NCBI RefSeq assembly: GCF_048403405.1
Contig: NZ_CP183129.1
DNA length: 64,000 bases
Direction: 5' to 3' (one strand)
Source: Escherichia coli
Lineage (GTDB): Bacteria > Pseudomonadota > Gammaproteobacteria > Enterobacterales > Enterobacteriaceae
This document shows, in pieces, positions 21,668 to 54,085 of this stretch. The translations under genes and the position numbers were made by a program. Positions within the stretch are counted from its first letter, which is position 1, and each line of letters opens with the position of its first letter. The notes under the pieces are model-generated. The model was not told where the DNA came from, searched no databases, and saw nothing but the letters and a program-made list of their open reading frames with translations.

Positions 21668-21793
21668 TTAAAAAAGCAGCATCATATATTTGAAGCGACT
21701 TTCAATGGCCATTGCAACACAGTCAGAAATGACAGGAATAGAGAGAGTAAAAAGCAACAACAGACTGAATATAGCGCGCATTAAAAGATTCAT
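21668..21793 (-). CDS. Candidate 41-aa small hydrophobic protein directly downstream of uacT (below the six-frame track length cutoff)
   Basis: Minus-strand ATG one nucleotide after the uacT stop; translation is MNLLMRAIFSLLLLFTLSIPVISDCVAMAIESRFKYMMLLF with one predicted TM helix. It may correspond to a small protein annotated in K-12 as yqfG, but I am not certain of that. Confidence 0.45.
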   Translation of the reverse strand: MNLLMRAIFSLLLLFTLSIPVISDCVAMAIESRFKYMMLLF

Positions 21794-21794
21794 A

Positions 21795-23243
21795 TTATTC
21801 TCCATGCTCATTTTTCTTCAGCTTGCGCATCAGAAGCCACATACGTACTGTCCTGACTTTTAAATCTTTATCAGAGACGGATTCCTTCACCAGATCAGCA
21901 TGATGCTGATAGCCATTAAAGAAGACGTTCAGCACAACGGCGCTAAGGGTTGCGAGCATAATGCCGCTATGCAGCAACGGTTGCAGTACGGCCGGTAACT
22001 TAGAAAAGAAATCGTGAGAGAGCGTCGGAGTCATGCCAACGCCGAGACTGATCGCCACAATATAGAGGTTGTAACGATTGGTGGTGTAGTTACAGCGCGA
22101 CAGAATTCGAATCCCTGTCGCCAGTACCATGCCGAACATCACCAGCCCAGCACCGCCCAGCACAAATTGCGGAATGGAGGCGACCAGCACCGCCATTTTT
22201 GGCACCATGCCAAACAGGATTAATATAATTCCCGAAGAAATACACACCCAGCGGCTATGAACGCGCGTCACGCTAACCAGGCCAACGTTTTGAGAAAATG
22301 ACGTGTGGGGAAAGCTGTTAAACGTTCCGCCTATCATTGTCCCTACGCCATCGACACGCAGCCCGCGAATAATATCGTGTGAAGAGAGTTTACGACCGAC
22401 TATTTCACCCAGTGCCAGGAACATCCCCATCGACTCGATAAACACGATGATTAACACGGCAGTCATGGTCAGAATGGAAACGGGATCGAAAATCGGCATA
22501 CCAAATGACATCGGCGTGACAATCGCAAACCATGAAGCATCATGTAGCCCGGATAAATTGACTTCATTCATCATCCACGAAAGTAAAAAGCCAAATACAA
22601 TCCCCAGTAATACGGCGACGTTGGACATAAATCCTTTCGCATAGCGAGTAATGAGCAAGATAAAAATTAAGACGGCAAAGGAGATACCTAAATAAACGGG
22701 ATTACCATATTGCGGATTCCCTTTACCTCCGGCGGCCCAGTCAATACCCACCTGAATGATGCTAAGCCCGATAGAAGTAATCACAACACCGGTAACCAGT
22801 GGCGGGAATAAAGGCATCAAGCGACCGATAAGTGGCGCTAATAATGTGGTGATAAAACCCGCGGCGATAGTGGCACCGAATATCCCCAGCAGGCCGATAT
22901 CCGGGTTCATGCCAATGGCTATCATTGGTGTTACAGCGGCGAAGGTCACCGACATAATCACCGGCAGGCGGATCCCCATAAAGCGGCCGATACCGATACA
23001 TTGCAATAATGTGACGATCCCGCAGCAAAAGAGATCCGAGCTAATGAGCATCGCAATAGCTTCTTTTGAGAGGCCCAGTCGGTCACCAATCATAAGAGGA
23101 ACAGCGACTGCACCTGCGTACATGACAAGGACGTGTTGCAGACCGAGTATGATCAGCTTTCCTGGTGATAATATGCGGTCAACCTCATCAGTTGGGCGGT
23201 CTTGCCCTGAAGATGAGGGAAGTTGGGAATCTATGGCGCTCAT
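21795..23243 (-). CDS. uacT: Uric acid:H+ symporter, NCS2 (nucleobase-cation symporter-2) family
   Basis: Track ORF 21795..23372 trimmed to the ATG at codon 44 (MSAIDSQLPSSSGQ...), preceded by an AAGGAG SD; 482 aa polytopic membrane protein. Confidence 0.9.
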   Translation of the reverse strand: MSAIDSQLPSSSGQDRPTDEVDRILSPGKLIILGLQHVLVMYAGAVAVPLMIGDRLGLSKEAIAMLISSDLFCCGIVTLLQCIGIGRFMGIRLPVIMSVTFAAVTPMIAIGMNPDIGLLGIFGATIAAGFITTLLAPLIGRLMPLFPPLVTGVVITSIGLSIIQVGIDWAAGGKGNPQYGNPVYLGISFAVLIFILLITRYAKGFMSNVAVLLGIVFGFLLSWMMNEVNLSGLHDASWFAIVTPMSFGMPIFDPVSILTMTAVLIIVFIESMGMFLALGEIVGRKLSSHDIIRGLRVDGVGTMIGGTFNSFPHTSFSQNVGLVSVTRVHSRWVCISSGIILILFGMVPKMAVLVASIPQFVLGGAGLVMFGMVLATGIRILSRCNYTTNRYNLYIVAISLGVGMTPTLSHDFFSKLPAVLQPLLHSGIMLATLSAVVLNVFFNGYQHHADLVKESVSDKDLKVRTVRMWLLMRKLKKNEHGE

Positions 23244-23678
23244 CAGTGTTTCTCCTTTCGCCCGCCAGAGTAAAAAGCAACCGTTTACGTTAATGAAACT
23301 GTCTAAACACATGCTCGTGGAGTGCCAGTTTTTGCGAGGAAGGGGAGTTAGAGACAGGAATTGCGGAGGCAATCACATAATCGTGGTTAAACCACGAAAA
23401 TGAGAAGAGAACCTGACAATGGAATTATCTGTAATTTTCTCATATTGATATTTCATTAATCATTCTGGCATGTCGCACTCTCGCATTTAATCGTTTTTAT
23501 CTGGATAGCGCTCTTTTGGTCGGCAATGTTGAAGTAATGAAAGCGGCACAGATTGAGGGGCAATAATTTGAACTCAGTCGCAAAATTATAATTAAATCGG
23601 CCATGCTACCTAATATATGCCCATTTATTGCATCGCGAAATTTGAGAAGACATAACTCATTAAATGAAAGGGATGCAA

Positions 23679-25598
23679 ATGAATAAGTTTATCGCTGCTG
23701 AAGCTGCGGAATGTATAGGCTGTCATGCTTGTGAAATTGCCTGTGCGATGGCACATAATCAAGAAAACTGGCCGCTGAGTCACAGTGACTTTCGACCGCG
23801 TATCCACGTTGTAGGGAAAGGCCAGGCTGCGAATCCGGTGGCCTGCCATCACTGCAACAATGCCCCTTGCGTTACGGCTTGTCCGGTTAATGCTCTGACT
23901 TTCCAGCCCGATAGCGTACAACTGGACGAGCAAAAATGTATTGGTTGTAAAAGATGCGCAATCGCTTGCCCCTTTGGCGTCGTTGAGATGGTCGATACGA
24001 TTGCGCAGAAATGCGACCTTTGTAACCAGCGCAGTTCCGGCACGCAAGCCTGTATTGAAGTCTGCCCAACACAGGCGTTACGGCTGATGGACGATAAAGG
24101 GTTGCAGCAGATAAAGGTGGCCCGCCAGCGCAAAACGGCAGCAGGAAAAGCGTCATCAGACGCTCACCCATCTCGCAGTGCAGCGTTGCTCCCCGTTAAC
24201 TCGCGTAAAGGCGCAGATAAAATTTCAGCGAGTGAACGGAAAACCCACTTTGGCGAAATCTATTACGGGCTGGATCCACAACAAGCGACTTATGAGAGTG
24301 ACCGCTGTGTTTATTGCGCCGAAAAAGCTAACTGCAACTGGCATTGCCCGCTGCATAACGCTATTCCGGATTACATCCGTCTGGTGCAGGAAGGAAAGAT
24401 TATTGAAGCGGCAGAACTTTGCCACCAGACCAGTTCCTTACCAGAAATCTGCGGCAGGGTATGTCCACAGGACCGTCTTTGTGAAGGCGCATGTACTTTG
24501 AAAGATCACTCTGGCGCAGTCACTATCGGTAATCTGGAACGCTACATCACCGATACCGCGCTGGCGATGGGCTGGCGTCCCGATGTCAGCAAAGTTGTTC
24601 CCCGTAGCGAAAAAGTGGCGGTGATTGGCGCAGGGCCTGCAGGGTTAGGGTGTGCTGATATTCTGGCGCGCGCAGGAGTTCAGGTTGATGTCTTTGATCG
24701 CCATCCAGAAATTGGCGGTATGCTGACTTTTGGCATACCTCCTTTCAAACTCGATAAAACGGTATTAAGCCAGCGGCGAGAGATATTCACCGCAATGGGA
24801 ATCGACTTTCATCTTAATTGTGAAATTGGCCGCGATATTACCTTTGGCGATTTAACTTCTGAATATGATGCAGTTTTCATCGGCGTGGGGACTTACGGGA
24901 TGATGCGAGCAGATCTGCCGCATGAAGATGCGCCCGGTGTCATTCAGGCTCTACCGTTCCTGACTGCCCATACCCGCCAGCTCATGGGGTTGCCGGAGTC
25001 TGAAGAGTATCCGCTGACGGATGTGGAAGGTAAGCGAGTCGTGGTATTGGGCGGTGGCGATACGACCATGGATTGTTTGCGGACTTCCATCCGCCTCAAT
25101 GCCGCCAGCGTGACCTGCGCGTATCGTCGTGATGAAGTCAGTATGCCGGGCTCGCGCAAAGAGGTGGTCAATGCGCGCGAGGAAGGTGTCGAGTTTCAGT
25201 TCAATGTTCAGCCGCAATATATCGCTTGTGACGAAGATGGGCGTTTAACTGCGGTGGGCCTGATTCGTACAGCCATGGGTGAGCCGGGGCCGGATGGTCG
25301 CCGTCGTCCTCGTCCGGTAGCGGGTTCAGAGTTTGAATTGCCCGCCGATGTTCTCATTATGGCCTTTGGTTTCCAGGCGCATGCCATGCCGTGGTTGCAG
25401 GGCAGCGGAATTAAACTCGATAAATGGGGCCTGATTCAAACCGGTGACGTCGGGTATTTACCTACCCAGACGCATCTGAAAAAAGTCTTTGCTGGTGGTG
25501 ATGCTGTTCATGGCGCGGATCTGGTTGTCACTGCAATGGCCGCAGGAAGGCAGGCGGCGCGCGATATGTTAACTCTGTTTGATACGAAGGCATCGTGA
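23679..25598 (+). CDS. ygfT: Fe-S / FAD-NAD(P)-binding oxidoreductase (N-terminal 2x[4Fe-4S] ferredoxin domain plus glutamate-synthase-small-subunit-like flavoprotein)
   Basis: Track ORF trimmed to [22 protein letters not shown]...; CxxCxxCxxxCP motifs and a GAGPAGL dinucleotide fold; 639 aa. Confidence 0.9.
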
Positions 25599-26086
25599 TG
25601 AAATCGTTAATTATCGTTAATCCGGCTGACTGTATTGGCTGCCGTACTTGTGAAGTAGCCTGTGTGGTCGCTCACCCTTCAGAACAGGAGTTGAATGCCG
25701 ATGTCTTTTTACCCCGGCTGAAGGTACAGCGACTGGACAGCATCAGTGCGCCGGTGATGTGCCATCAGTGTGAAAACGCCCCTTGTGTTAGCGCTTGCCC
25801 CGTGGGGGCGCTGACGATGGGCGAGCAGGTGGTGCAGGCCAATTCTGCCCGTTGTATTGGCTGTCAGAGTTGCGTCAGTGCGTGCCCGTTTGGGATGATA
25901 ACCATTCAGTCGTTGCCGGGGGATACCCGGCAACAAATTGTGAAATGCGATCTCTGTGAACAGCGGGAAGAGGGGCCAGCCTGCGTTGAATCTTGCCCGA
26001 CACAGGCGCTGCAGTTGCTTACTGAAAGAGAACTCAGGCGAGTCCGCCAGCAGCGTATTGTTGCCAGCGGTAAGAATCCTCTGTGA
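25598..26086 (+). CDS. ygfS: 4Fe-4S ferredoxin-like electron-transfer subunit
   Basis: 162 aa with several CxxCxxCxxxCP motifs; the ATG overlaps the ygfT stop (TGATG). Confidence 0.88.
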
Positions 26087-26121: not shown

Positions 26122-27489
26122 TTAGATTGCCCAACCACCCGCGTAAAATGCGACCAGTGCGGCAGTAATGATCACCGTACCAATATTCAGCTTTTGCCAT
26201 TCGCGTGCAAAGACGCGGCCTACGACCAGTGTCACAAAGCCCAGCATAATACCGGTAACGATATTACAAGTCAGAACGATGAACACGGCACACACCAGGC
26301 CAGCCATTGCGTCAATAAAATCATTGAAATCCAGCTTCGAGACGTTACTTAACATCAGCAAACCTACGTACATCAGAGCGGGTGCAGTGGCGTAACCAGG
26401 GATCAAAAATGACAACGGTGATAAGAACAAAATCAGCAGGAATAACGCCCCCACTACGGTTGCGGTCAATCCTGTTTTACCCCCGGCGGCGGTTCCTGCC
26501 GCTGATTCGATATAAACCGCTGCGGGCGCTGCGCCCACCAGGCCGGAGAATATTGAACTTACTGAGTCACTGGTCAGGGCTTTGCCGCCGTTGATGATCT
26601 GGTTGTCTTTATCCAACAAATTCGCCTGACCGGCGACGGCACGGATGGTACCAGTGGCGTCGAACACTGCGGTCATCACCAATGCTAGTACACTCGGAAG
26701 TACAGTTGGCTGGAGTGCGCCCATAATATCGAGGCTGAAAATCAGAGACTTACCATCTTCGCCAGTCAGGCTTGGCATCGCCACCAGACCGTGGTATTTC
26801 ACCGCTGGATCAAAGATTAAGCCGATGATCGAAATTGCAATAATCACCAACAAGATCCCGCCTGGTACGCGGCACTTTTCCAGACCGAAGATGACCGCCA
26901 GCCCCAGCAAGCTCATCATCACCGGGAAGGAGGTAAACGCACCGAGCGCCACTGGCAAGCCTTCAATCGGGTTTTTGATAACCATTCCCACACCGTTAGC
27001 AGCAATCAGCAGCAGAAACAGGCCGATACCGATACCTGTACCGTGAGCTATCCCCATCGGTAAATTACGTAAGATCCAGGTACGCACACCGGTTACGGAA
27101 ATGGCGGTGAAGATGACGCCCATCAGAAAGACCGCGCCCAGTGCGACAGGAACGCTAATTTGTTGCCCGAGAACCAGACTGAATGCGGTAAACGCCGTCA
27201 AGGAAATCGCGCAACCAATCGCCATTGGCAAATTGGCCCATAATCCCATCAGCAACGAGCCGAAGCCCGCGACCAGACAGGTGGCAACAAACACAGCTGC
27301 GGGAGGAAAACCTGCTTTGCCCAGCATTCCCGGAACGACGATAACGGAATAAACCATGGCCAGAAAGGTCGTTAAGCCAGCCAGTACTTCCTGACGAACG
27401 GTACTGCCACGAGCGGTAATTTTAAAATAATTATCCAGCGCGCCCTGTGGCTTTGGTGCGTCCGGTGTTTGTAGGATGTCTCCAGACAT
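26122..27489 (-). CDS. ghxQ: Guanine/hypoxanthine permease, NCS2 family
   Basis: 455 aa polytopic membrane protein, [30 protein letters not shown]... Confidence 0.9.
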
Positions 27490-27524: not shown

Positions 27525-28844
27525 TTAGTTGCGTTCGTACACCAGACGACCATCAACGTAGGTGCGGTAGATCGAACGGTCATCGCCCAACGTCATCATC
27601 ACGAACAATTTGTCGACTAAAGAAACAGAGTTGTCATAGCGCAGCTGCTGTAGCGGAGTGGCGGTGGGTTCCATCACCACGAAATCAGCCTCTTTGCCAG
27701 GTAAAAAGTTGCCAATCAAATCGTCAAGGCCCAGAGATTTCGCTCCGCCGAGCGTGGCCAGGTAAAATGCTTCATATGCCGAGAGGCGATAGCCTTGTAG
27801 TTGCAACACTTTGTAGGCTTCGTTTAGCGTTTGCAGCATGTTGAAAGTTGTTCCGGCACCGATATCCGTTCCCATGCCCACTTTGACTTTCTTCTGCCAT
27901 GCTTTTTTCAAGTTGAATAAGCCGCTGCCGAGGTAAAGGTTGGAGGTCGGACAGAAAGCAATGCTGGATTTGGTTTCGCTGAGACGATCCCACTCTTTTT
28001 CTTCGAGATGGACGCAGTGAGCAAAGACACAGTTTTTACCGGTCAGGCCGTACTGATGGTAAACATCCAGATAGCCATCATGTTCAGGATAAAGTTCTTT
28101 CACCCAGGCAATTTCATCTTTGTTTTCACAGAGATGGGTATGTACCCACGTATCCGGATATTCTTCTTTCAGGCGTTGCGCCATCGCCATCTGTTCAGGA
28201 GATGAGGTAGGGGCGAAGCGTGGCGTAATCGCATACAACAGACGACCATTTTTGTGCCAGCGTTCAATCAGTTCTTTGCTTTGGTGATAGCTGCTTTCGG
28301 CAGTGTCGAGCAGATAATCCGGTGCGTTTCGGTCCATCATCACTTTACCGGCAATCATACGCATATTGATATGACTGGCGGCTTCAAACAGCGCATCAAC
28401 GGATTGCGGATGAACAGTGCCAAACACCAGCGCCGTGGTGGTTCCGTTACGTAAAAGCTGCTTGATGAAGAACGCCGACATCTCGCGGGCGTACTCTAAA
28501 TCCTCATAACGACGTTCAGTAGGGAAGGTGTGTTTATTCAACCACTCCAGCAATTGTTCACCATAGGCCCCCACCATTTCACTTTGCGGATAATGGATAT
28601 GTGTATCGACAAAGCCCGGTACTATCAGTTTGCCGCGATAGTCGCGCACGCGAATGGTGTCAGGAATTTGATGTTTTCCGTCTTCCCATTCGCCAAACCA
28701 TTCCACTTTTCCCTGTTTAATGAGTAATAAACCATCCTCAATAAACCGCAGCGCAGAGGCAATCTCTTCCGGGTTGTCGACCGTACGCGTGACATCAATA
28801 AAACTGCCTCGTACCGCTTTTAACGTGTGTTCTCCTGACATCAT
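27525..28844 (-). CDS. guaD: Guanine deaminase (amidohydrolase superfamily)
   Basis: Track ORF 27525..28964 trimmed to MMSGEHTLKAVRGSF..., giving 439 aa; metal-binding HxH motif (PGFVDTHIHYPQ). Confidence 0.9.
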   Translation of the reverse strand: MMSGEHTLKAVRGSFIDVTRTVDNPEEIASALRFIEDGLLLIKQGKVEWFGEWEDGKHQIPDTIRVRDYRGKLIVPGFVDTHIHYPQSEMVGAYGEQLLEWLNKHTFPTERRYEDLEYAREMSAFFIKQLLRNGTTTALVFGTVHPQSVDALFEAASHINMRMIAGKVMMDRNAPDYLLDTAESSYHQSKELIERWHKNGRLLYAITPRFAPTSSPEQMAMAQRLKEEYPDTWVHTHLCENKDEIAWVKELYPEHDGYLDVYHQYGLTGKNCVFAHCVHLEEKEWDRLSETKSSIAFCPTSNLYLGSGLFNLKKAWQKKVKVGMGTDIGAGTTFNMLQTLNEAYKVLQLQGYRLSAYEAFYLATLGGAKSLGLDDLIGNFLPGKEADFVVMEPTATPLQQLRYDNSVSLVDKLFVMMTLGDDRSIYRTYVDGRLVYERN

Positions 28845-28858: not shown

Positions 28859-30259
28859 TTAATCCATCTCTTCCGCTGAGGTAATACCAGGCAGAACGTT
28901 TTCCTGTCGGTAGCCACCAGGGAGGATAATATTTAATAAAATCGCAGTTAACCCGCCAGCACAAATAGGGTTTTCAACTAATACATAAATAGAGGCTGGC
29001 AATATTTTAAAAATTTCGGGATCGTAGGAGACGCCAAGCCCTAAACCTAAAGAAGTGGCGACAATAAGTGTTTCACGGCGCTTTAAACCGTTGGTGATGA
29101 TGATGCGAATCCCAGCGATAGCAATCATGGAAAACATCAACGTCATTGCGCCTCCCAGAACTGCCGAGGGTATGGTTGTGAAGAAGCCGCCAATCATCGG
29201 AAACAAGCCGAGGATAACCAGCATTACCGCGATGGTTCGCCCGACATAACGTGAAGCGACGCCAGTCATCTGAATAACCCCATTATTTTGCGCAAACGTG
29301 GTTAAGGGTAATGAACCGACAGCGGAGGCGATAACAGAAACCAGACCATCTGCCAGCACGCCGCCTTTCAGTCGGGACTGATACTCTTCCCCCTGAATAG
29401 GGCGGCGAGAAACCATTGCCGTGGCGGTGATATCGCCGACAGCTTCCAGCACGCTAAGCAAATAAATCGTGCCAACCACCAGGAACTGATGGAAGCTGAA
29501 ACTAAACCCGTATTTGAATGGATGCGGGATGGTGATTAACGGCAAATTGCGCATACTGCTGAAATCCACCATACCCAGGCATAACGACGCGATATAACCG
29601 ACGCATAGCCCAATGGCGATCCCTCCCATGCGTAGCAACGGACTGCGACAGCAGTTAAAGCCGATCACCACAATCAAAACCAATAAACCAACGCCGAGAT
29701 GTTCGTAATTGCCGAACGTACCGCTGCTTTTGGCTGCAAATCCTCCACCAAAATCGATAATGCCGACTTTAATCAGGCTTAAGCCGATCATCAGTACCAC
29801 AATACCGCTGACGGTAGGCGTAATAACCCGACGTAAATAGGGCAAGATAAATGAAGATCCGACAACCAGAAATGCGCCAACGAAGGAGACGCCGAGAAGC
29901 GACGACATGATTAACTCTTCGTGAAAACCGTCGCTTTTCATGCTGCTGCCCAGCGCAATCATGACCGTAACAAATGAAAAATTGACTGACTGAATTGAGA
30001 GTAGGCCAGAACCGACGATGCCGTAGCGGTTTACTTGTAACCAGGTACCAATACCAGAGGCGATCATCGCCATAGAAACAAGATAGGCGGTTGTTTCAGC
30101 GGAAAGCTGTAAGGCCGCACCCACGATTAACGCGGGGGTTACCATCGGAACGAAAATTGCCAACAGATGGGTAATGGCACCAACGAGAGCCTGATGAAAG
30201 GGAGGGCGATCCTCCAGTTCAAATATAAGGTCAGAACCTGCATGGTTTATATCAGACAT
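28859..30259 (-). CDS. xanQ: Xanthine:H+ symporter, NCS2 family
   Basis: Track ORF 28859..30316 trimmed to MSDINHAGSDLIFELEDRPPFHQ..., giving 466 aa; sits 14 nt upstream of guaD. Confidence 0.9.
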   Translation of the reverse strand: MSDINHAGSDLIFELEDRPPFHQALVGAITHLLAIFVPMVTPALIVGAALQLSAETTAYLVSMAMIASGIGTWLQVNRYGIVGSGLLSIQSVNFSFVTVMIALGSSMKSDGFHEELIMSSLLGVSFVGAFLVVGSSFILPYLRRVITPTVSGIVVLMIGLSLIKVGIIDFGGGFAAKSSGTFGNYEHLGVGLLVLIVVIGFNCCRSPLLRMGGIAIGLCVGYIASLCLGMVDFSSMRNLPLITIPHPFKYGFSFSFHQFLVVGTIYLLSVLEAVGDITATAMVSRRPIQGEEYQSRLKGGVLADGLVSVIASAVGSLPLTTFAQNNGVIQMTGVASRYVGRTIAVMLVILGLFPMIGGFFTTIPSAVLGGAMTLMFSMIAIAGIRIIITNGLKRRETLIVATSLGLGLGVSYDPEIFKILPASIYVLVENPICAGGLTAILLNIILPGGYRQENVLPGITSAEEMD

Positions 30260-45723: not shown

Positions 45724-46920
45724 TTAAGGTGCTACAGCGTGTTTGCCTTCCCAGACAACTTCGCGGTAGTGCTTCACGTCGGTGTCGCCTTCAGTGCTGA
45801 TAACCAGCACCACGGCATCTTTGTTCAGCGCCAGTTTTTCCATCAGGCTTTGACGTTGTGGGTGATAATGAACCGCTGCGAGAACGCCCAAACCGACAGC
45901 GCCGGATTCGCCGGAGATGATGCGCGGGTCGTTGCCGTACGGATTACCCAGCACGCGCATACCTAATGCGGCAACGCTGTCCTGGCAGGAGATGAATTGG
46001 GTGGCGCAGTTACGTAGGATTTCCCAGCCCAGCGGGTTAGGTTCGCCACAGGCCAGGCCTGCCATGATGGTGGCCATATCACCGCCAACGTTGACGATGT
46101 CGCCTTTGACGCCAGAGCGATAAATACAGTCAGCTTTGTCAGGTTCAACAATAATGCTGTGCAGATTTTGCGGGCTGTAGACGTCGACCAGATAACCCAG
46201 CACACCACCAGCCATTGCACCGACACCGGCTTGCAGCAGAACGTGCGTCGGGGTTACGCCCATTTCACGCATTTGCTCGACGGCTTCATCTGCCAGTGTT
46301 GCGTAGCCTTGCATGATCCAGGTTGGGATTTTGGTGTAACCTTCCCAGGCGGTATCTTGCACCACTTCCCAGCCGTGCTGCTGCGCGTGTTGCATGGTCA
46401 GGCGAACGGTATCGTCATAGTTCATATCCGTGACGATGCACTCGGCACCGAGGTTCAGAATGGCGTCAACGCGTTCCTGAGCAGAACCTTTCGGCATGTA
46501 AATCACCGCATTCTGTCCGAGTTGCTGTGCTGCCCACGCCACACCGCGCCCGTGGTTGCCGTCGGTGGTGGTCGCGAAGGTCATTTTTTCGCCGATGGCA
46601 TTTTTCAGATGCTCAAATGACAGCGTTTCGATATCAAGATGATATTTTTCACACAATAATTGAGCGATGGCGTACGCACCGCCGAGCATTTTGAAGGCGT
46701 TCAGACCGAATCGTTTTGATTCGTCTTTGACGAGAATTTTCTTCACACCAAAAAGGTTTGCGAGATCGTCCAGCGCACAAAGCGGTGTTGGGCGATAACC
46801 AGCAATTTTCTGATGGAACTGGCGCGCCAGTTTGGCCTGGCTTTGCGAAAAGAGCGGTGATGTTTCGCCGTTGAAAAATTTGTTATCGGCGATATCAATC
46901 TTCAATGAGAAAACGGACAT
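45724..46920 (-). CDS. dpaL: Diaminopropionate ammonia-lyase (PLP-dependent, fold type II)
   Basis: 398 aa; also known as ygeX. Confidence 0.88.
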   Translation of the reverse strand: MSVFSLKIDIADNKFFNGETSPLFSQSQAKLARQFHQKIAGYRPTPLCALDDLANLFGVKKILVKDESKRFGLNAFKMLGGAYAIAQLLCEKYHLDIETLSFEHLKNAIGEKMTFATTTDGNHGRGVAWAAQQLGQNAVIYMPKGSAQERVDAILNLGAECIVTDMNYDDTVRLTMQHAQQHGWEVVQDTAWEGYTKIPTWIMQGYATLADEAVEQMREMGVTPTHVLLQAGVGAMAGGVLGYLVDVYSPQNLHSIIVEPDKADCIYRSGVKGDIVNVGGDMATIMAGLACGEPNPLGWEILRNCATQFISCQDSVAALGMRVLGNPYGNDPRIISGESGAVGLGVLAAVHYHPQRQSLMEKLALNKDAVVLVISTEGDTDVKHYREVVWEGKHAVAP

Positions 46921-46977: not shown

Positions 46978-48168
46978 TTATTTCACGCGTTCTTGCGCTT
47001 CTTTCAGCAGTTGCTCGAGCAGTGCACCTGGTTTGGCGTATTTACGGGACAGGATCATCGCGGCGATGATATAAGGCTTCCAGCTGGCTTCTTTGTAGGT
47101 CGCGATACGGTATTTTTCGAATACGCCTTCAGTCACTTCACCTTCTTTGCAGGATACGCCGCTGATATCAGCTGGCAGGCAGTGCATGTACAGGGCTTCG
47201 CCATCACGGGTCAGTTCCATCATCTCTTCAGTACAATGCCAGTCTTTGTGTTGCGCGTTCTGTGCCAGACACTGTTTTTCCAGTGCTTTTAAGCCTTCGT
47301 GATCGTTCGCACGCAGCAATTCAGTACGCTCTTCCATCACTTTGTAAGGTGCCCATGACTTCGGATAAACGATGTCTGCGTCTTTGAAGGCTTCTTCCAT
47401 GCTGGTGACCTGACGGAAGCTACCGCCGGAGGCTTTAGCATTGTTTTTAGCGACTTCAACGACATCCGGGATCAGGTCGTAGCCTTCCGGATGGGCCAGG
47501 GTGACATCCATACCGAAGCGAGTCATCAGACCGATGATGCCTTGTGGTACAGATAGCGGTTTGCCATAGCTTGGGGAGTAGGCCCAGGTCATGGCGATTT
47601 TTTTACCTTTCAGGTTTTCCAGTGAACCAAAGTGTTCACGTAACCATGCCAGGTCAGCCATTGACTGAGTCGGGTGGTCAATATCGCATTGCAGGTTCAC
47701 TAAAGCCGGACGTTGCGGCAGCACACCCTGCTTGTAACCGTCATCAAGTGCAGCGCCAACTTCACGCATATAGGCGTTGCCTGCGCCCAGATACATATCG
47801 TCGCGAATACCAATAGCGTCGGCGCAGAAGGAGATCATATTGGCGGTTTCACGCACGGTTTCGCCGTGAGCGATTTGTGATTTGCCTTCATCGAGATCTT
47901 GCTGTGCAAGGCCGAGCAGGTTAAGCGCGGAAGCATAAGAGAAGCGGGTACGAGTGGAGTTGTCGCGGAATACGGAAATACCTAATCCACTATTAAAGAC
48001 TTTGGTTGAGATGTTTTCAGCACGCAGTGCTTTTAATGCTGCGGCAACGTCCAGTACTTGTTTCAGTTCATCTGGCGTCTGTTCCCACGTTAACAAAAAA
48101 TCTTTCTCGTGAAGGTGAGAGGTCAGCGAATTGATATCCTTAATCAGCTCATTAACAGTTTTCATCAT
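46978..48168 (-). CDS. ygeW: Carbamoyltransferase YgeW (aspartate/ornithine carbamoyltransferase family)
   Basis: 396 aa with STRTR and HCLP signature motifs (DNSTRTRFSYASA; YMHCLPADISG). Confidence 0.88.
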   Translation of the reverse strand: MMKTVNELIKDINSLTSHLHEKDFLLTWEQTPDELKQVLDVAAALKALRAENISTKVFNSGLGISVFRDNSTRTRFSYASALNLLGLAQQDLDEGKSQIAHGETVRETANMISFCADAIGIRDDMYLGAGNAYMREVGAALDDGYKQGVLPQRPALVNLQCDIDHPTQSMADLAWLREHFGSLENLKGKKIAMTWAYSPSYGKPLSVPQGIIGLMTRFGMDVTLAHPEGYDLIPDVVEVAKNNAKASGGSFRQVTSMEEAFKDADIVYPKSWAPYKVMEERTELLRANDHEGLKALEKQCLAQNAQHKDWHCTEEMMELTRDGEALYMHCLPADISGVSCKEGEVTEGVFEKYRIATYKEASWKPYIIAAMILSRKYAKPGALLEQLLKEAQERVK

Positions 48169-48257: not shown

Positions 48258-48276
48258 TAACAATAAGTGTGCCAGA
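48258..48276 (-). promoter_or_regulatory. Candidate sigma54 (-24/-12) promoter reading toward ygeW
   Basis: Minus strand reads CTGGCACACTTATTGTT: the -24 TGGCAC element and the correct spacing to a -12 TTGT (consensus TTGC), about 90 nt upstream of the ygeW start and next to the divergent sigma54 activator gene ygeV. One mismatch in the -12 GC. Confidence 0.4.
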
Positions 48277-48643
48277 ATTATCCACGGGGCTGCAAAAGAC
48301 TAATTTGACGGATAATGTGTGGGGTTGATCACAAATTGATGCCAGCTTCCGGTTGTTTGTAAAATACGAAAACGATTGGCTTTTCTTATCGCGTTATTTA
48401 TTTACTGCTAAGTATCAGAAATAAGATAAAGGGACAGGCTATCTCTCTTCAGTTTGATAAACTCACCGCCGTAATTCTCATATTGATATAGAAATGTGAT
48501 ATCTCTTCCATAATTTCATTAGAAAGTGATAAAAATCTTATGTTTTTATCAAAGCCAATTTCGCCTGAGTTAATATCATCATGATCTGTGAACCATCAAC
48601 GTCTTCAATGATCGACTTTTAAGTAAGTCTGGAAGGTAAAGCT

Positions 48644-50422
48644 ATGGAGCTTGCTACTACGCAGTCAGTATTGATGCAAATTCAACCGACAATTCAGCGT
48701 TTTGCCAGAATGCTTGCCAGCGTTTTGCAGCTTGAGGTTGAGATCGTTGATGAAAACTTGTGTCGCGTCGCCGGAACGGGCGCGTATGGGAAGTTTCTTG
48801 GTCGCCAGTTGAGCGGCAACTCACGCCTGCTCCGCCACGTCCTGGAAACGAAAACTGAAAAAGTTGTGACACAGTCTCGCTTCGATCCCCTTTGTGAAGG
48901 TTGCGATAGTAAAGAAAATTGCCGCGAAAAAGCATTTCTGGGTACGCCTGTCATTTTACAGGATCGTTGTGTTGGGGTGATAAGTTTGATTGCCGTTACC
49001 CACGAGCAACAAGAGCATATCAGTGATAATTTACGCGAATTTTCTGATTATGTTCGCCATATATCCACCATTTTTGTTTCGAAACTTCTGGAGGATCAGG
49101 GGCCAGGAGATAACATCAGTAAAATATTCGCGACCATGATCGATAATATGGATCAGGGCGTATTAGTTGTTGATGATGAAAGTCGGGTTCAGTTTGTTAA
49201 TCAGACTGCCTTAAAAACACTTGGTGTTGTACAAAATAATATTATTGGGAAACCTATCCGTTTCAGACCATTAACATTTGAGAGTAATTTTACCCATGGA
49301 CATATGCAGCATATTGTTTCGTGGGACGATAAAAGTGAATTAATCATTGGTCAATTGCATAACATTCAGGGCCGACAATTATTTTTAATGGCGTTTCACC
49401 AATCGCATACCAGTTTTTCTGTAGCAAATGCACCTGATGAACCGCATATTGAACAATTGGTTGGCGAGTGCCGTGTTATGCGGCAATTAAAACGACTCAT
49501 TAGCCGTATTGCACCCAGCCCATCCAGCGTTATGGTGGTTGGTGAAAGCGGCACGGGTAAAGAAGTTGTCGCCCGTGCAATCCATAAGTTGAGCGGAAGA
49601 CGGAATAAACCCTTTATTGCTATCAACTGTGCCGCGATTCCGGAGCAGCTTCTGGAGAGCGAACTGTTCGGTTATGTTAAAGGCGCATTTACTGGCGCTT
49701 CTGCCAACGGTAAAACAGGGTTGATTCAGGCGGCGAATACGGGCACGCTGTTTCTCGATGAAATAGGTGATATGCCATTAATGTTGCAGGCTAAATTACT
49801 GCGCGCTATTGAGGCACGTGAAATTCTGCCGATTGGTGCCAGTAGCCCAATACAAGTCGACATTCGCATCATTTCTGCAACTAACCAGAATTTGGCCCAG
49901 TTCATTGCCGAAGGTAAATTCCGCGAAGATCTCTTCTACCGACTTAATGTTATCCCGATAACTCTGCCACCGCTGCGTGAACGTCAGGAAGATATTGAAC
50001 TACTGGTGCATTACTTTTTACATCTGCATACCCGTCGTCTGGGATCGGTTTATCCGGGCATTGCTCCCGATGTCGTCGAAATATTGCGTAAGCATCGTTG
50101 GCCCGGAAACCTGCGCGAGTTAAGCAATTTGATGGAATATCTGGTTAACGTGGTTCCTTCAGGTGAAGTTATCGACAGCACGCTATTGCCGCCAAATCTG
50201 CTGAATAATGGCACAACGGAGCAAAGTGATGTAACAGAGGTCAACGAGGCGCACCTGGCACTCGATGATGCGGGCGGCACGGCGCTGGAGGAGATGGAAA
50301 AGCAAATGATCCGCGAGGCGCTTTCACGTCATAACAGCAAGAAGCAAGTTGCTGATGAACTGGGCATCGGCATTGCTACGCTCTACCGCAAGATTAAAAA
50401 ATATGAGTTGTTAAACACATAA
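48644..50422 (+). CDS. ygeV: Sigma54-dependent transcriptional activator (NtrC/bEBP family) with N-terminal sensory domains
   Basis: 592 aa; AAA+ Walker A (VVGESGTGKEVVARAIH), the GAFTGA sigma54-contact motif and a C-terminal HTH. Confidence 0.9.
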   Translation: MELATTQSVLMQIQPTIQRFARMLASVLQLEVEIVDENLCRVAGTGAYGKFLGRQLSGNSRLLRHVLETKTEKVVTQSRFDPLCEGCDSKENCREKAFLGTPVILQDRCVGVISLIAVTHEQQEHISDNLREFSDYVRHISTIFVSKLLEDQGPGDNISKIFATMIDNMDQGVLVVDDESRVQFVNQTALKTLGVVQNNIIGKPIRFRPLTFESNFTHGHMQHIVSWDDKSELIIGQLHNIQGRQLFLMAFHQSHTSFSVANAPDEPHIEQLVGECRVMRQLKRLISRIAPSPSSVMVVGESGTGKEVVARAIHKLSGRRNKPFIAINCAAIPEQLLESELFGYVKGAFTGASANGKTGLIQAANTGTLFLDEIGDMPLMLQAKLLRAIEAREILPIGASSPIQVDIRIISATNQNLAQFIAEGKFREDLFYRLNVIPITLPPLRERQEDIELLVHYFLHLHTRRLGSVYPGIAPDVVEILRKHRWPGNLRELSNLMEYLVNVVPSGEVIDSTLLPPNLLNNGTTEQSDVTEVNEAHLALDDAGGTALEEMEKQMIREALSRHNSKKQVADELGIGIATLYRKIKKYELLNT

Positions 50423-50432: not shown

Positions 50433-50462
50433 TCCGGCCTGAATTCAGGCCGGATATCCTTT
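50433..50462. terminator. Bidirectional terminator between the convergent ygeV and xdhC genes
   Basis: Perfect 22-bp palindrome TCCGGCCTGAATTCAGGCCGGA followed by a T-rich tract. Confidence 0.7.
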
Positions 50463-50941
50463 TACTTCGTTTTCTCGCAATCCAGAACTGTATTTACAAT
50501 CATCTGATACCCCGTGCAGCGACAAAGATTTCCCGCCAGTCCGCGACGAATTTCCGTAATGGTTAATGGCTTCTCGCGTGGTTTCGCCAGCATTGCTGTG
50601 GTAGCCATAATCAGGCCAGGCGTACAAAACCCGCACTGCACTGCGCCGGATTTAGCATAAGCCTGCTGTACATGAGAAAGTTTTCCGCCTTTCGCTTCAC
50701 CTTCCAGCGTGCGGATCTCTTTTCCTTCAGCCCAGGCGGCAAGGTATAAGCAACTGTCTATTGCTGTGCTGTCGACCAGCACCGTACAGGCACCACATTC
50801 ACCCACGCAGCACCCTTGTTTGACACTTAGCAGTCCTTGTTCGCGGAGTAATTCCGAGAGCGGCGTGCCTGGTGCGGCGTGAAGCTGAAAAGGCATCCCG
50901 TTAATGGTGCATTCGATGGTGATTGTTTCGCTGTGATTCAT
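50462..50941 (-). CDS. xdhC: Xanthine dehydrogenase Fe-S subunit (2x[2Fe-2S])
   Basis: 159 aa with the [15 protein letters not shown] motif. Confidence 0.9.
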
Positions 50942-51816
50942 TGCAATTTTCCCCCCGCCGCGGCGACGGCTTCGCTAATCACTTTTTTGGTCATCGTCTG
51001 GATGAGATGCAGACGAAACTCTTTACTGGCCCGCCATGAAGAACGCGGGGCGACATCTTGCAGGACAGATTCGCTGATGGCTTCCAGCGTTTGCAGGTTT
51101 AATGGCGCATTTTGTGCAGTCTGTTCGGCATGTTGGCAGCGAATCGGCGTTGGCGCGGCAACACCAAATGCCAGACGTAATTCGCTGAAATTGCCGTTAT
51201 CCAGTCGGCAATGTGCGGCGCAGCCAATCGTTGAAATATCCATTGCGTCGCGCATGGCATATTTAAAATGCGCGCTGCCCGCGTGTTCTTTCGGCTGGGG
51301 CGGAAAATGAAAGGAAACAAGGATTTCGTCATGCTCAAGAGACACTTTGCCCGGTCCAGTGTGAAAGCCATTAATCGGGACGAAACGAACACTGCGTGGG
51401 GAGTGGATCTCCAGTTTCGCGTCATAAATGAGCGTTGGCGTGGCAGAATCTGCGCTGGTGGCACCGTTGCAAATATTTCCACCGTAGGTAGCGACGTTAC
51501 GGATCTGCGGTCCAGCAATGGACGAGGCCGCAGCACATAACGCCGGGAGAAGACGTTGAGTTATAGGATCTTCTATTAGCTGGGTAAATGTCGTTGCAGA
51601 GCCGATACGTAGTGAGCCATCTTCCGCCAGCGTAATTCCCTGCAGCTCCGCCAGATTATGAATATCAACAATATGGCGATAACGGTCATTGTGATGGTGG
51701 AGCTGAATCAGTACGTCAGTGCCACCGGCGAGCAGTTTGGCCTGCGGGTTGTCAGCCAGCAGGTTGATGGCATCGGCAAGGGTTGCTGCGCGATGGTAAG
51801 AAGCAAAATCAAACAT
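50938..51816 (-). CDS. xdhB: Xanthine dehydrogenase FAD-binding subunit
   Basis: 292 aa; overlaps xdhC by 4 nt. Confidence 0.9.
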
Positions 51817-51826
51817 GATGTTATCC

Positions 51827-54085
51827 TCAAATCAATCCTGCCAGATGGAACTCTTCATATAACCGTTTTGGCGTCAGCGGCAGTGTATTGATTGCAACAC
51901 CGGTAGCCATCTTCACCGCGTTACGAATAGCAGCGGCAACAGGAATTATTGGTGGCTCACCCAGTGACTTATGTCCGTATGCGGATTGCGGCTCATTGAT
52001 TTCGACGAACGCGCTTTCCAGTTGTGGCAGATCCGGCATGGTCGGCATTTTGTAATCCAGCAGATTGGGGTTACGGACCACGCCGCTTTTCGCATCGATG
52101 ATCATCTCTTCAAATAGCGCCCAGCCAATGCCCATTCCCATTCCGCCGTGTACCTGACCTTCTGCCAGCAGCGGATTTAGAATATGCCCCGAATCATGAA
52201 CGTTGAGGATGCGGTTGATGGTGACTTTACACAGCGCAATATCGACCGTCAGATCAACAAAGGTACAGCCAAACGCCGGTGGGTTAGTGGTGGTTTTGAT
52301 GGAGCTTTCAGCAGAGAGCTGCCCGCCGCGTTCAGGGTGGTAGAAGGCGTCCATCGCCAAATCTTTTAACGACATTAACGGCTCTTCCGGTCGTTCAACC
52401 AGCACGATATGGCCTTTTATCAAGGTAAGATTCATCGCTGACTGATGTAGCATGACAGCGGCGTGAGCGATGATTTTCTCCTTTAATAACAGTGCCGCAC
52501 TGCGCAGCGCGGGCGCGGCAACATAGCTCTGGCGCGAGGCAAATGCACCGGGATCGAACGGCGTAACGTCGGTATCTTGTGTTGAAATAACGCGAACGTC
52601 GCTGACCGGAACCCCCACGGTTTCTGCCACCATTTGCGAGAAGACAGTGTCGGCACCCTGACCGATTTCTGTCGCGCCGCTTTGCACGTTGATGGTTCCA
52701 TCCTGATTCATCAACAGGCGCGCGCCTGCTATTTCTACGCCGACAGGCCAGGTGTTAGAGGTGTAGCTAAAACAGGCGACGCCAACGCCGCGGCGTAAAT
52801 TGCTTTGCTGGTTCTGGCATTCTGAACGGCGTTTTTCCCATTCAAAGATTTTCCGGCCTTTTTCAAGACACTCCGGCAACCCTGCGCTGTAAATACGTTT
52901 GCCCGAGAGCGGATTAGCATCTCCTTCGCGGGCGGCGTTGCGTAAACGAATTTCAACAGGATCAATACCTAACGCTGTCGCGGCGTCATCAAGCATAGAC
53001 TCAACGGCAAATACGACTTGTGGCGCGCCATAACCACGCATCGCACCAGCCGAGGGGAGGTTGGTATAGCAGGTCTTTGAACTGTAAGCGTAGGCACAAC
53101 GAGGATAAAGGTAAGCGACTTTATTCCCCCCTGCAGAAGCGATGGAGTGCCCGTGAGATGCATAAGCGCCGGTGTTAGACAGAACATCCAGACTATAACC
53201 TTTCAATGTTCCGTCGCGGTTCACGCCCATTTGCCCGTCAATAGTAAAAGCGTGGCGGGTACGGGTTGCGAGGAAACACTCTTCACGGCTAAGGGAAACT
53301 TTCACCGGAATGCCGCCAAGCTTGCTGGTCAGGAATGCCGCCATTGGCTCTTCCAGTACATCCTGTTTATTACCAAAACCGCCACCGACAAACGGTTTGA
53401 TGACTCGTACGCATGACCAGGGAATATTCAGCGCCTGACCAACCACACGGCGAACAATGTGCGGGATCTGGGTGCTGGAAACGATGGTAATTCGCGAGTC
53501 ATCCTCCATCCATGCCAGCGATGTCACGCTTTCCATGTGACAATGTTGAATGACCGGCGTCTGATAGTGCCCCTGCACCTGGTAATCGGCGGCATCGATT
53601 GTTTGTTGGACATTACCCGTCGACATCGAGCTTTGTTTTAGTAAATTGCCGCCGTTATGGATTGGTGCAGCGTCATCTGCCAGCGCCGCTTCTGGCGTGG
53701 TGATAACGGGTAATTCTTGCCACTCAATGCTGACCAATTGCGCCGCTTTTTCTGCCGTGATTTCATCACGGGCCACGACGATGGCAACGGCGTCACCATG
53801 ATGACGAACATGGCGAGTTAGCAGTGCGCGATCGGCGGTATCGCGCTTGTTTTCGTCAAGTGTCCAGGCATGCCCAGCTGTAGCGAATGGGATATCAGGT
53901 ACATCTTCCCAGGTAAAAATTGCCAGTACGCCTGGTAAACTTCTGGCTTGTTCATCATTAATACTTACGGCATAACCATGTGCGATAGGGCTACGTACAT
54001 ATTTCGCGTAACACATGCCCGCCATAACATAATCGTCAGTATATCGTGCCCGCCCGGTGACCTTAGCAATGGCATCGACGCGCAT
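51827..54085 (-). CDS. xdhA: Xanthine dehydrogenase molybdenum-binding subunit
   Basis: Track ORF 51827..54124 trimmed to MRVDAIAKVTGRARYTDDY..., giving 752 aa. Confidence 0.9.
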   Translation of the reverse strand: MRVDAIAKVTGRARYTDDYVMAGMCYAKYVRSPIAHGYAVSINDEQARSLPGVLAIFTWEDVPDIPFATAGHAWTLDENKRDTADRALLTRHVRHHGDAVAIVVARDEITAEKAAQLVSIEWQELPVITTPEAALADDAAPIHNGGNLLKQSSMSTGNVQQTIDAADYQVQGHYQTPVIQHCHMESVTSLAWMEDDSRITIVSSTQIPHIVRRVVGQALNIPWSCVRVIKPFVGGGFGNKQDVLEEPMAAFLTSKLGGIPVKVSLSREECFLATRTRHAFTIDGQMGVNRDGTLKGYSLDVLSNTGAYASHGHSIASAGGNKVAYLYPRCAYAYSSKTCYTNLPSAGAMRGYGAPQVVFAVESMLDDAATALGIDPVEIRLRNAAREGDANPLSGKRIYSAGLPECLEKGRKIFEWEKRRSECQNQQSNLRRGVGVACFSYTSNTWPVGVEIAGARLLMNQDGTINVQSGATEIGQGADTVFSQMVAETVGVPVSDVRVISTQDTDVTPFDPGAFASRQSYVAAPALRSAALLLKEKIIAHAAVMLHQSAMNLTLIKGHIVLVERPEEPLMSLKDLAMDAFYHPERGGQLSAESSIKTTTNPPAFGCTFVDLTVDIALCKVTINRILNVHDSGHILNPLLAEGQVHGGMGMGIGWALFEEMIIDAKSGVVRNPNLLDYKMPTMPDLPQLESAFVEINEPQSAYGHKSLGEPPIIPVAAAIRNAVKMATGVAINTLPLTPKRLYEEFHLAGLI

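Follow-up and report, generated by a model that had tools for sequence, protein, structure and literature searches.

The DNA described here is a stretch of 64,000 nucleotides of the Escherichia coli chromosome (NZ_CP183129.1), referred to below as the window. Within it, about 32 kb (21668-54085) hold genes for purine transporters, molybdenum hydroxylases, iron-sulfur (Fe-S) flavoproteins, amidohydrolases, and a carbamate kinase. This stretch is very probably the E. coli locus for purine uptake and anaerobic urate degradation, leading from purines to pyruvate. The cluster is real and annotated, its enzyme steps were worked out between 2023 and 2025, and the pathway itself is already known.

Gene Content and Conservation of the Locus

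All 22 genes listed in a first-pass annotation of the window are present, intact, and in the order given there. The RefSeq annotation, open reading frame calls, and curated family models concur on this order. Coordinates follow the RefSeq annotation of an identical genome (L001), the window coordinate being the L001 coordinate plus 16667. Each product scores above the curated NCBIfam cut-off of its named family, except GhxQ, which has no NCBIfam match and belongs to the Pfam family Xan_ur_permease (1.8e-80). Published assays used proteins of K-12 MG1655, to which the encoded proteins are 97-100% identical, and the catalytic activities given below are taken from the literature on those K-12 proteins.

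At the left end, uacT (21795..23243, - strand) encodes a urate:H+ symporter of the NCS2 family (TIGR03173, 510 bits). It is followed on the + strand by ygfT (23679..25598), whose product fuses a HydN-like 4Fe-4S domain to a GltD-like NAD(P)H/FAD domain (NF009451, 1497 bits), and ygfS (25598..26086), which encodes a HydN-like 4Fe-4S protein of 162 amino acids. The first-pass annotation counted YgfS among the Fe-S flavoproteins, but it is ferredoxin-like and the flavin domain is absent. Three - strand genes come next: ghxQ (26122..27489) for a guanine/hypoxanthine transporter that is 100% identical to that of K-12, guaD (27525..28841) for guanine deaminase (TIGR02967, 636 bits), and xanQ (28859..30259) for a xanthine:H+ symporter, named by RefSeq and by its curated family model.

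The reductive enzymes are encoded on the - strand by xdhD, ygfM, ssnA, and ygfK. XdhD (30424..33294) is the Mo/Fe-S subunit of the urate to 2,8-dioxopurine reductase (TIGR03313, 2117 bits against a cut-off of 1102; 99.7% identical to K-12), and YgfM (33291..34070) is its FAD subunit, where electrons enter from NADH (TIGR03312, 487 bits); the two genes overlap by 4 bases. SsnA (34121..35449) is the amidohydrolase that opens the reduced pyrimidine ring (TIGR03314, 737 bits against a cut-off of 455.5; NF005540, 709 bits). Li et al. use SsnA as the marker of reductive uric acid degradation clusters, and the locus carries it. A gap of 2 bases separates ssnA from ygfK (35452..38550), which encodes the Fe-S flavoprotein 2,8-dioxopurine reductase, DOPOR (TIGR03315, 1780 bits).

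The accessory genes follow. MocA (38872..39450, - strand) is a molybdenum cofactor cytidylyltransferase (TIGR03310), which makes the MCD form of the molybdenum cofactor (Moco). On the + strand, yqeC (39553..40323) encodes a predicted SIMIBI-class P-loop NTPase that is a marker of the selenium-cofactor trait, and yqeB (40371..41996) encodes an XdhC-type Moco chaperone (amino acids 12-247) joined to a C-terminal domain (amino acids 271-526). One co-directional unit on the - strand then comprises yqeA/arcC (42037..42969; carbamate kinase, the ATP-forming step; TIGR00746, 100% identical to K-12), hyuA (43017..44402; a D-hydantoinase opening ureidomethyl-hydantoin; TIGR02033), ygeY (44455..45666; an M20 peptidase-family ureidohydrolase; TIGR03526), ygeX/dpaL (45724..46920; diaminopropionate ammonia-lyase, releasing pyruvate and NH3; TIGR03528), and ygeW (46978..48165; a knotted carbamoyltransferase that phosphorolyses a ureido group to carbamoyl phosphate; NF005538, 825 bits). 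The regulator gene ygeV (48644..50422, + strand) encodes a sigma-54 enhancer-binding protein with an N-terminal sensor containing CxxCx5C, a PAS domain, an AAA+ domain with GAFTGA, and HTH_8. Last come xdhC, xdhB, and xdhA (50462..54124, - strand) for the xanthine dehydrogenase (XDH) that converts xanthine to urate, identified by curated family models.

The arrangement is nearly a core feature of the species. Several complete genomes match positions 21668-41668 at 100% identity, and at least 80% of these positions are found in one place in 5155 of 5426 complete E. coli genomes (95%); positions 41669-54200 are likewise found to at least 80% in 5155 of 5426. The core synteny recurs in other Proteobacteria whose YqeB is 50-58% identical, and is kept in two such loci (L082 and L083). 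Because the block is retained within E. coli and its synteny recurs in other Proteobacteria, the clustering is no chance arrangement. Gene placement does vary: in Enterobacter sp. Bisph1 (L002), xdhABC lies apart from ygeV, and yqeCB-mocA does not lie between yqeA and ygfK. The G+C content of the cluster gives no indication that it was acquired recently by horizontal transfer. A scan of 20000-57000 against Rfam (E<=1) returned only tRNA-Gly; neither a Moco riboswitch nor a purine riboswitch was found in the cluster.

The Pathway from Purines to Pyruvate

The core pathway has been published (Cell 2023; Nat Microbiol 2025; Life Metab 2025). According to this literature, UacT, XanQ, and GhxQ take up urate, xanthine, guanine, and hypoxanthine; GuaD converts guanine to xanthine, and XdhABC then converts xanthine to urate. 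With NADH, XdhD-YgfM strips urate of its C6 oxygen to give 2,8-dioxopurine, which YgfK dearomatises with NAD(P)H and whose pyrimidine ring SsnA opens to yield ureidomethyl-hydantoin. HyuA turns this hydantoin into 2,3-diureidopropionate. One ureido group is then phosphorolysed by YgeW to carbamoyl phosphate, from which YqeA makes ATP. YgeY hydrolyses the remaining ureido group, and YgeX turns the resulting 2,3-diaminopropionate into pyruvate and ammonia.

Two studies carry this scheme for the E. coli proteins. In the first, E. coli XdhD co-purifies with YgfM and catalyses the NADH-driven conversion of urate to 2,8-dioxopurine, YgfK and SsnA with NAD(P)H turn 2,8-dioxopurine into ureidomethyl-hydantoin, and HyuA opens the hydantoin (Li et al., 2025; 10.1101/2025.05.19.654654; PMC12507026). 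YgeW with phosphate strips one ureido group, and YgeY and YgeX complete the route to pyruvate. Mutants with urate phenotypes support the pathway, and a delta-xdhA strain stops consuming xanthine (Li et al., 2025). The second study reached the same pathway independently through C. sporogenes genetics and reconstituted it fully with recombinant E. coli K-12 YgfK, SsnA, HyuA, YgeW, YgeY, YgeX, and YqeA (Liu et al., 2025; 10.1101/2025.04.24.650524; later Nat Microbiol 2025). In that reconstitution, YgeW and YqeA make ATP from 2,3-diureidopropanoate, which bears out the proposal of the first-pass annotation that purines lead to carbamoyl phosphate and ATP. Both papers are reviewed in a commentary by Percudani, which also sets out the outstanding questions. 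One disagreement between them counts against the scheme as drawn above: the product of YgeW is 2-amino-3-ureidopropionate (albizziin) in Li et al. but 3-amino-2-ureidopropanoate in Liu et al.

The pathway has medical weight, since gut bacteria that possess it remove intestinal urate, and this importance is already recognised in print. E. coli Nissle engineered to over-express the cluster lowered serum urate in uricase-deficient mice (Li et al., 2025). Against this background, what the present analysis adds (a candidate YgeV operator, CRP sites, and predicted folds for YqeB and YqeC) is incremental; it could be useful for controlling the native cluster as opposed to replacing its promoters.

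Sigma-54 Promoters and a Candidate YgeV Operator

The cluster genes are reported to be induced by urate. The genes xdhABC, ygeWXY, hyuA, ygfK, ssnA, ygfM, xdhD, ygfT, and uacT belong to the YgeV iModulon, and ygfT expression is reduced in a ygeV mutant (Lamoureux et al., 2023; PMC10602906). Chromatin immunoprecipitation sequencing (ChIP-seq) of sigma-54 in K-12 placed sites before xdhA, ygeW, ygfK, and ygfT (Bonocora et al., 2015; PMC4591121). All four are found in the window, three of them exactly. The exact -24/-12 elements lie on the - strand, upstream of ygfK-ssnA-ygfM-xdhD (38623..38639, GTGGTGCGATTGTTGCT), ygeW-ygeX-ygeY-hyuA-yqeA (48259..48275, CTGGCACACTTATTGTT), and xdhABC (54180..54196, CTGGCGTAAATCTTGCC). 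The element of ygfT-ygfS (23616..23632, + strand, TATGCCCATTTATTGCA) is a weak match, with one mismatch to the K-12 site. The ygfK element is conserved in Enterobacter sp. Bisph1 and in the proteobacterial locus L083, and the ygeW element in Enterobacter. These four promoters would drive ygfTS, ygfK-ssnA-ygfM-xdhD, ygeWXY-hyuA-yqeA, and xdhABC. Terminator-like hairpins bound units at 26093-26116, 42005-42030, and 50432-50455, and hairpins also occur within operons, 3' of ygeW, ygeY, and xdhD.

Upstream of every one of the four sigma-54 promoters lies a 13-bp palindrome, TATCA-N3-TGA(T/G)A, centred 105-208 bp from the -24 element. Activators of sigma-54 promoters usually bind enhancers some 100-300 bp upstream. 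Three of the four promoters have the identical 12-mer CTCATATTGATA upstream, whereas ygfK has the perfect palindrome TTATCATAATGATAA (38807..38821), centred 176 bp 5' of its -24 element. In the divergent uacT-ygfT region, the candidate site is TCTCATATTGATA (23438..23450; TATCAATATGAGA on the other strand), centred 173 bp 5' of the ygfT -24 element. At xdhABC it is TATCAATATGAGT (54294..54306), which overlaps the palindrome TGATACGTATCA and is centred 105 bp 5' of the -24 element. The ygeW site (48476..48488) lies inside a block conserved in the Enterobacter alignment and has a weaker distal copy at 48574-48584.

These occurrences exceed chance. A scan of the window for TCATAWTGATA with at most one mismatch gave 10 matches, against a mean of 2.0 in shuffled sequence, and none of 100 shuffles reached 10. 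Five of the matches are exact, where about 0.06 would be expected by our own arithmetic. The form TATCA-N3-TGA(T/G)A occurs 4 times in the window against a simulated mean of 0.155. Beyond the window, perfect palindromes number 9.3 per 100 kb in five pathway loci and 0.32 per 100 kb in the other loci retrieved (1.27 Mb), a 29-fold difference. Among four YqeB loci without the pathway, three (L086-L088) have no perfect palindrome and one (L085) has a single copy.

A search of genome contigs with YgeV returned mostly generic AAA+ sigma-54 activators; only the loci L002-L007 are informative. Orthologs of E. coli YgeV from Citrobacter or Klebsiella were not recovered in this search, and the YgeV protein homologue search gave only near-identical E. 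coli variants, which cannot be used for footprinting. Enterobacter sp. Bisph1, whose YgeV is 69% identical, keeps the motif-bearing block at ygeW and has TTATCATTTTGATAA about 157 bp upstream of the conserved ygfK sigma-54 element. The same layout of palindrome and sigma-54 element precedes ygfK in L082 and L083, the proteobacterial clusters found through relatives of YqeB. In a Clostridium metagenome-assembled genome (L003) and in Sedimentibacter hydroxybenzoicus (L005), the palindrome stands before canonical sigma-54 promoters beside YgeV-like regulators.

The same motif has been predicted computationally for the Clostridial activator DioR, with the function of the regulon given as 'Unknown' (Nie et al., 2019; PMC6615313). 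That regulon includes dpaL-pyrC-argE, ygeW-ygfK-ssnA-ygeY, yqeC-ygfJ-yqeB-xdhC, and others (Nie et al., 2019). Among the sites predicted for DioR in C. botulinum, ATTTATCATAATGATAAGG is almost the same as the one at E. coli ygfK. YgeV itself has the AAA+ sigma-54 domain (PF00158, 2.1e-70) with GAFTGA at residue 347, and its helix-turn-helix (HTH) recognition helix, LGIGIATLYRK, is common to the regulators of Enterobacter sp. Bisph1, L003, and L005 and absent from the other sigma-54 activators retrieved. From these sequence comparisons we infer that YgeV is the enterobacterial ortholog of DioR and that TTATCA-N3-TGATAA is its operator. YgeV, encoded in the cluster, would thus be the activator acting from the palindrome at the four sigma-54 promoters.

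Several points weigh against this assignment. It rests on position, conservation, and homology to a computationally predicted site. The -24 element of ygfT is poor, with TG in place of GG. The iModulon member ybiY-ybiW, which lies outside the cluster, has no palindrome in its 130-bp upstream region (L081, 8513-8642). This K-12 region holds an FNR-like site, TTGACGCACATCAA, and the membership of ybiY-ybiW in the iModulon may reflect anaerobiosis instead of direct control by YgeV. The literature search found no paper that assigns the palindrome to YgeV in E. coli; databases such as RegulonDB may list it.

An alternative is that the palindrome binds another regulator, such as a protein preferring AT-rich sites or one responding to iron or anaerobiosis, or that it is a structural DNA element. 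The palindrome is AT-rich and, by our own comparison, loosely resembles Fur-box hexamers; one FNR-like half match overlaps the xdhA palindrome, the link to YgeV is a prediction, and ybiY belongs to the iModulon without having the motif. This explanation is unlikely, though it survives better than the other alternatives considered here. Six loci from two phyla have the palindrome at enhancer distance from sigma-54 promoters, and a gene for an activator of the YgeV/DioR type lies in or beside each of these loci; the palindrome is rare elsewhere, and its presence tracks the distinctive recognition helix. Control by YgeV is preferred.

Other occurrences of the motif were noted. An exact match in ygeY (45417-45427) was rejected as a site, as it encodes the conserved M20 metal-binding A-H-I-D-T and is spelled with other codons in Enterobacter. 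A perfect palindrome within ygeX (TATCAAGATGATA, 46632-46644) is also found in K-12 and is imperfect in Enterobacter ygeX; it could be a chance occurrence or an internal YgeV site. In Citrobacter werkmanii (L004, 9590-10010), a YgeV paralog (38% identical, HTH ISIATLYRK) is encoded beside dpaL-like and M20-peptidase-like genes, together with the related sites TTATCAAAATGAAAC and TTATCAATTGTGAGAA and the sigma-54 element CTGGTAAGCATTTTGCT. By sequence, this looks like a second, smaller system of the DioR type. In the 6.5-Mb genome of L083, long tandem units of 6 or 7 bases (GTTGGCT, GTTAGCT, and, on the other side, AGCCAAT) flank the operator upstream of ygfK (8330-8500).

The uacT gene also has a sigma-54-like sequence, TGGCACTCCACGAGCA (23312-23327, - strand), 69 nt 5' of its start, with a perfect -24 and an imperfect -12 part. 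It is about 111 bp from the palindrome at 23438-23450 and is absent from the reported ChIP-seq peaks. One enhancer at 23438-23450 might serve both divergent promoters, those of uacT and ygfT. The best match to a PurR box, ACGTAAACGGTTGCTT (23275-23290, 32-47 bp 5' of the uacT start), was rejected: it has 3 mismatches, which by our own estimate is about what chance gives in 64 kb.

CRP Sites and the YgeV Sensor

Between the ygfK operator and its sigma-54 element lies TGTGAAAGAACTCACA (38702..38717), a CRP-consensus site with no mismatch to TGTGA-N6-TCACA. The corresponding position at ygeW holds TGTGATCAACCCCACA (48318..48333), a CRP-like site with 1 mismatch. Glucose repression has been reported, as has a 'native Crp-binding site' in the ygeV-ygeW spacer (Li et al., 2025). 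At ygfK and ygeW, CRP bound in the interval that separates operator from promoter would explain this repression. The IHF consensus, WATCAANNNNTTR, was not found in any intergenic region of the cluster; CRP may therefore serve as the DNA-bending factor at these sigma-54 promoters.

The N-terminal 150 residues of YgeV give only a marginal GAF match, and a PDB sequence search with the sensor domain found no relative. Within this domain, C-x2-C-x5-C (residues 84-93; window 48644-49100) is conserved in all full-length relatives retrieved (L002-L007), from Proteobacteria and Firmicutes alike, but not in the more distant regulators L008 and L011. These cysteines of YgeV/DioR may bind a metal or an Fe-S cluster. 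If so, the regulon would answer to redox state or metal supply in addition to purine.

Alternative Readings of the Cluster

The first-pass annotation held the substrates of XdhD, SsnA, YgfK, YgfT, and HyuA to be largely unproven, and saw in the cluster the most promising place in the window for new biochemistry. Names in current use encourage this view: RefSeq offers 'putative aminohydrolase SsnA', 'putative selenate reductase subunit YgfK', and 'YgeY family selenium metabolism-linked hydrolase', and 'putative' runs throughout the K-12 annotation of the cluster. Assignments are indeed still pending for YgfT, YgfS, YqeB, YqeC, and the effector of YgeV. However, in vitro reconstitution and mutant metabolomics have been published, and four of the five proteins have defined substrates; for XdhD, SsnA, YgfK, and HyuA the earlier statement is outdated, as the E. 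coli proteins were assayed in vitro with mutant support in the 2025 papers, and only YgfT is still without an assignment. With the core steps in print, it is improbable that the cluster is best read as a set of enzymes lacking substrates. The first-pass annotation was right that the cluster is already annotated.

A second possibility is that ygfK-ssnA-ygfM-xdhD primarily encodes a selenate reductase, with urate reduction as a side activity. NCBIfam/TIGRFAM labels such as 'putative selenate reductase subunit YgfK' and 'Se_sel_red_Mo' point that way, and a 2002 genetic study reportedly tied ygfK to selenate reduction in E. coli. Against this, urate and 2,8-dioxopurine are substrates of the purified enzymes, the genes respond to urate by induction, their neighbours encode purine transporters and ureide-cleaving enzymes, synteny with ssnA, hyuA, and ygeW is kept in many taxa, and the ygfK unit has the same candidate operator as xdhABC and ygeW. 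A primary role in selenate reduction is very improbable.

Equally hard to sustain is the view that the 32 kb are adjacent but functionally independent operons, united only by proximity in the annotation: the arrangement differs in Enterobacter sp. Bisph1, where xdhABC and yqeCB-mocA are placed elsewhere, and several units are parted by terminator-like hairpins, but the enzymes form one consecutive pathway, four units have a common candidate operator and sigma factor, and the block is kept together in 95% of E. coli genomes, with core synteny in L082 and L083. The operons are co-expressed as the YgeV iModulon and mutants show urate phenotypes, which is the opposite of what was said would speak against the first-pass interpretation, namely absence of co-regulation and of any purine- or selenium-dependent phenotype. 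One observation does limit the reading as a purine-to-pyruvate locus. The operator is missing at xanQ-guaD-ghxQ, mocA, and yqeC-yqeB, none of which the iModulon list includes; the 32 kb therefore hold a single pathway but are not a single regulon.

Selenium, YqeB, and YqeC

The marker genes yqeB and yqeC lie beside an XDH-family enzyme (TIGR03309, 415 bits; TIGR03172, 237 bits). The link that comparative genomics draws between yqeB/yqeC and selenium-dependent molybdenum hydroxylases, cited in the first-pass annotation, holds: there are yqeB loci adjacent to selD, and published genetics agrees. In distant taxa (L085, L088), yqeB adjoins selD, genes for TusA/DsrE relay proteins, a NifS-like gene, and a 'Se_S_carrier' gene. 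In another locus (L087, 10001-13195), yqeB is followed by genes for an LplA-like ligase and a LipA-like radical S-adenosylmethionine protein.

The C-terminal domain of YqeB, which follows the XdhC-type chaperone, is predicted to adopt a Rossmann-like fold with a biotinyl-like barrel. This domain (amino acids 271-526) has no Pfam family, no sequence relative in the PDB, and no solved structure covering its whole length; it is often a stand-alone protein of about 270 amino acids. YqeB has no invariant cysteine. The barrel is unlikely to be a lipoylated or biotinylated carrier, since, as we read the alignment, the consensus lacks a lysine at the hairpin that is modified in biotin carboxyl carrier protein (BCCP). 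In YqeC the Walker A and Walker B motifs are invariant, and its model resembles SIMIBI-class NTPases, with matches that include UreG, CooC, and HypB, which insert metal centres. The models suggest that YqeB and YqeC carry out an NTP-dependent step of cofactor maturation. MocA would make the cytidine-dinucleotide Moco, on which YqeB and YqeC would install a labile selenium ligand from selenophosphate derived from SelD. The selD gene is present in E. coli, outside the window.

Genetic support for a role of SelD and YqeB in selenium installation comes from clostridia. In C. difficile, selD and yqeB are needed for growth on xanthine and urate (Johnstone and Self, 2024; PMC11448449), and in C. sporogenes the urate reductase (DOPDH) and XDH require selenophosphate synthetase (Liu et al., 2025). 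For the E. coli enzymes, selenium dependence would follow by analogy, and two results tell against it: a C. difficile yqeC mutant has no phenotype (Johnstone and Self, 2024), and E. coli XdhD-YgfM is active when purified from ordinary cells (Li et al., 2025). The literature search found no report of labile selenium for E. coli XdhD or XdhA. If selenium is indeed installed, XdhD, and perhaps XdhA, would be the only non-selenocysteine selenoenzymes of E. coli.

YgfT, YgfS, and Formate

YgfT and YgfS belong to a ferredoxin-like family with HydN, YsaA, and HycB, the partners of formate dehydrogenase H (FDH-H). YgfT and its paralog AegA have been implicated in formate-dependent urate use. The most likely role of YgfT and YgfS, judged from their family, is as the formate electron input to urate reduction. 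Formate-derived electrons would reach the four-electron reduction of urate by way of the FDH-H/HydN ferredoxin network and these two proteins. This proposal is weakened by AegA, which gives no two-hybrid interaction with FdhF and has no effect on FDH-H activity, so that a formate route is indirect at best. Taken jointly, NTP-driven selenium insertion by YqeB/YqeC on MCD-Moco, formate-to-urate coupling through YgfT-YgfS, and possible metal or Fe-S sensing by YgeV make up a tentative proposal that is more likely wrong than right as a whole.

Boundaries and Neighbouring Sequences

The limits given in the first-pass annotation need small corrections. At position 21668 it is the small gene yqfG that ends; uacT itself ends at 21795. 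Position 54085 is the K-12 start codon of xdhA, but RefSeq places the start at 54124, and the xdhA sigma-54 promoter and its upstream operator fall outside the range. Between idi and uacT, the annotation places two very short genes in 21601-21793, yqfH (72 nt) and yqfG (126 nt).

Past the cluster, 54540-64000 holds actS, tRNA-Gly (55371-55441), genes for a GH15 glycoside hydrolase and a GhoT/OrtT-like toxin, and the ETT2 type III secretion island (eivF, sctC), which is low in G+C (37-40%). The K-12 counterpart of this region is degraded, with IS2 and the pseudogenes ygeN/O/P. K-12 also differs within the cluster: it has about 180 more bases between yqeA and yqeB (L089, 16395-16614) than the window has at 41997-42036. 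The additional sequence resembles repetitive extragenic palindromic (REP) elements and is flanked by a duplicated terminator hairpin, GGCCGGGTGGGTAATACCATCCGGCC, which occurs singly in the strain studied here.

Comparison with Known Systems

The closest relatives of the locus are the 2,8-dioxopurine clusters of C. sporogenes and C. difficile (Liu et al., 2023, 2025; Li et al., 2025), which have the same enzyme families and reaction order and the same accessory proteins YqeB, YqeC, and MocA; the E. coli cluster is one of the two experimental models of the pathway. Unlike the clostridial enzymes, which have no separate FAD subunit and probably use ferredoxin, the E. coli reductase has YgfM and takes electrons from NADH. 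C. difficile has the PydA-like UacX where E. coli uses YgfK, and its UacY hydrolyses the ureido group, whereas E. coli relies on YgeW with carbamate kinase and so conserves energy. E. coli also has ygfT-ygfS, three transporters, and guaD adjacent to the pathway genes.

The candidate regulatory system resembles the Clostridial DioR regulon. In both, a bacterial enhancer-binding protein gene adjoins dpaL, ygeW, ygfK, ssnA, ygeY, yqeB, yqeC, and xdh genes, and the -24/-12 promoters, the upstream TTATCA-N3-TGATAA site, and the HTH recognition helix correspond. However, the DioR regulon was defined in Clostridiales only, and the overall identity of E. coli YgeV is 36-39%. In E. coli, one half-site is degenerate (TGAGA or TGAGT) at three of the four sites, and CRP sites are interposed.

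With the selenium-dependent molybdenum hydroxylases of purinolytic clostridia (XDH, purine hydroxylase, and nicotinate hydroxylase), the locus has in common XDH-family enzymes encoded beside YqeB/YqeC. The YqeB/YqeC 'Se-cofactor trait' (Haft and Self, 2008) is a further likeness, in that distant yqeB genes adjoin selD and C. sporogenes DOPDH needs SelD. For E. coli XdhD/XdhA, labile selenium would be an extension by analogy.

Two further pathways have parts of the same logic. Reductive pyrimidine degradation by PydA/PydB/PydC, or by dihydropyrimidine dehydrogenase, dihydropyrimidinase, and ureidopropionase, also combines reduction of a uracil-like ring by a flavin/Fe-S enzyme, opening by an amidohydrolase, and cleavage of a ureido group, and the GltD-like module of dihydropyrimidine dehydrogenase (DPD) is present in YgfK. 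The E. coli substrate, however, is a purine that needs prior C6 deoxygenation by a molybdenum enzyme, and the E. coli route handles two rings and two ureido groups, one of which is phosphorolysed for ATP. The arginine deiminase pathway likewise gains substrate-level ATP from a carbamoyl group through carbamoyl phosphate. There the transferase, which works together with carbamate kinase, is ornithine transcarbamylase (OTC), whereas in the E. coli route the carbamoyl donor is 2,3-diureidopropionate and the transferase belongs to the knotted YgeW family.

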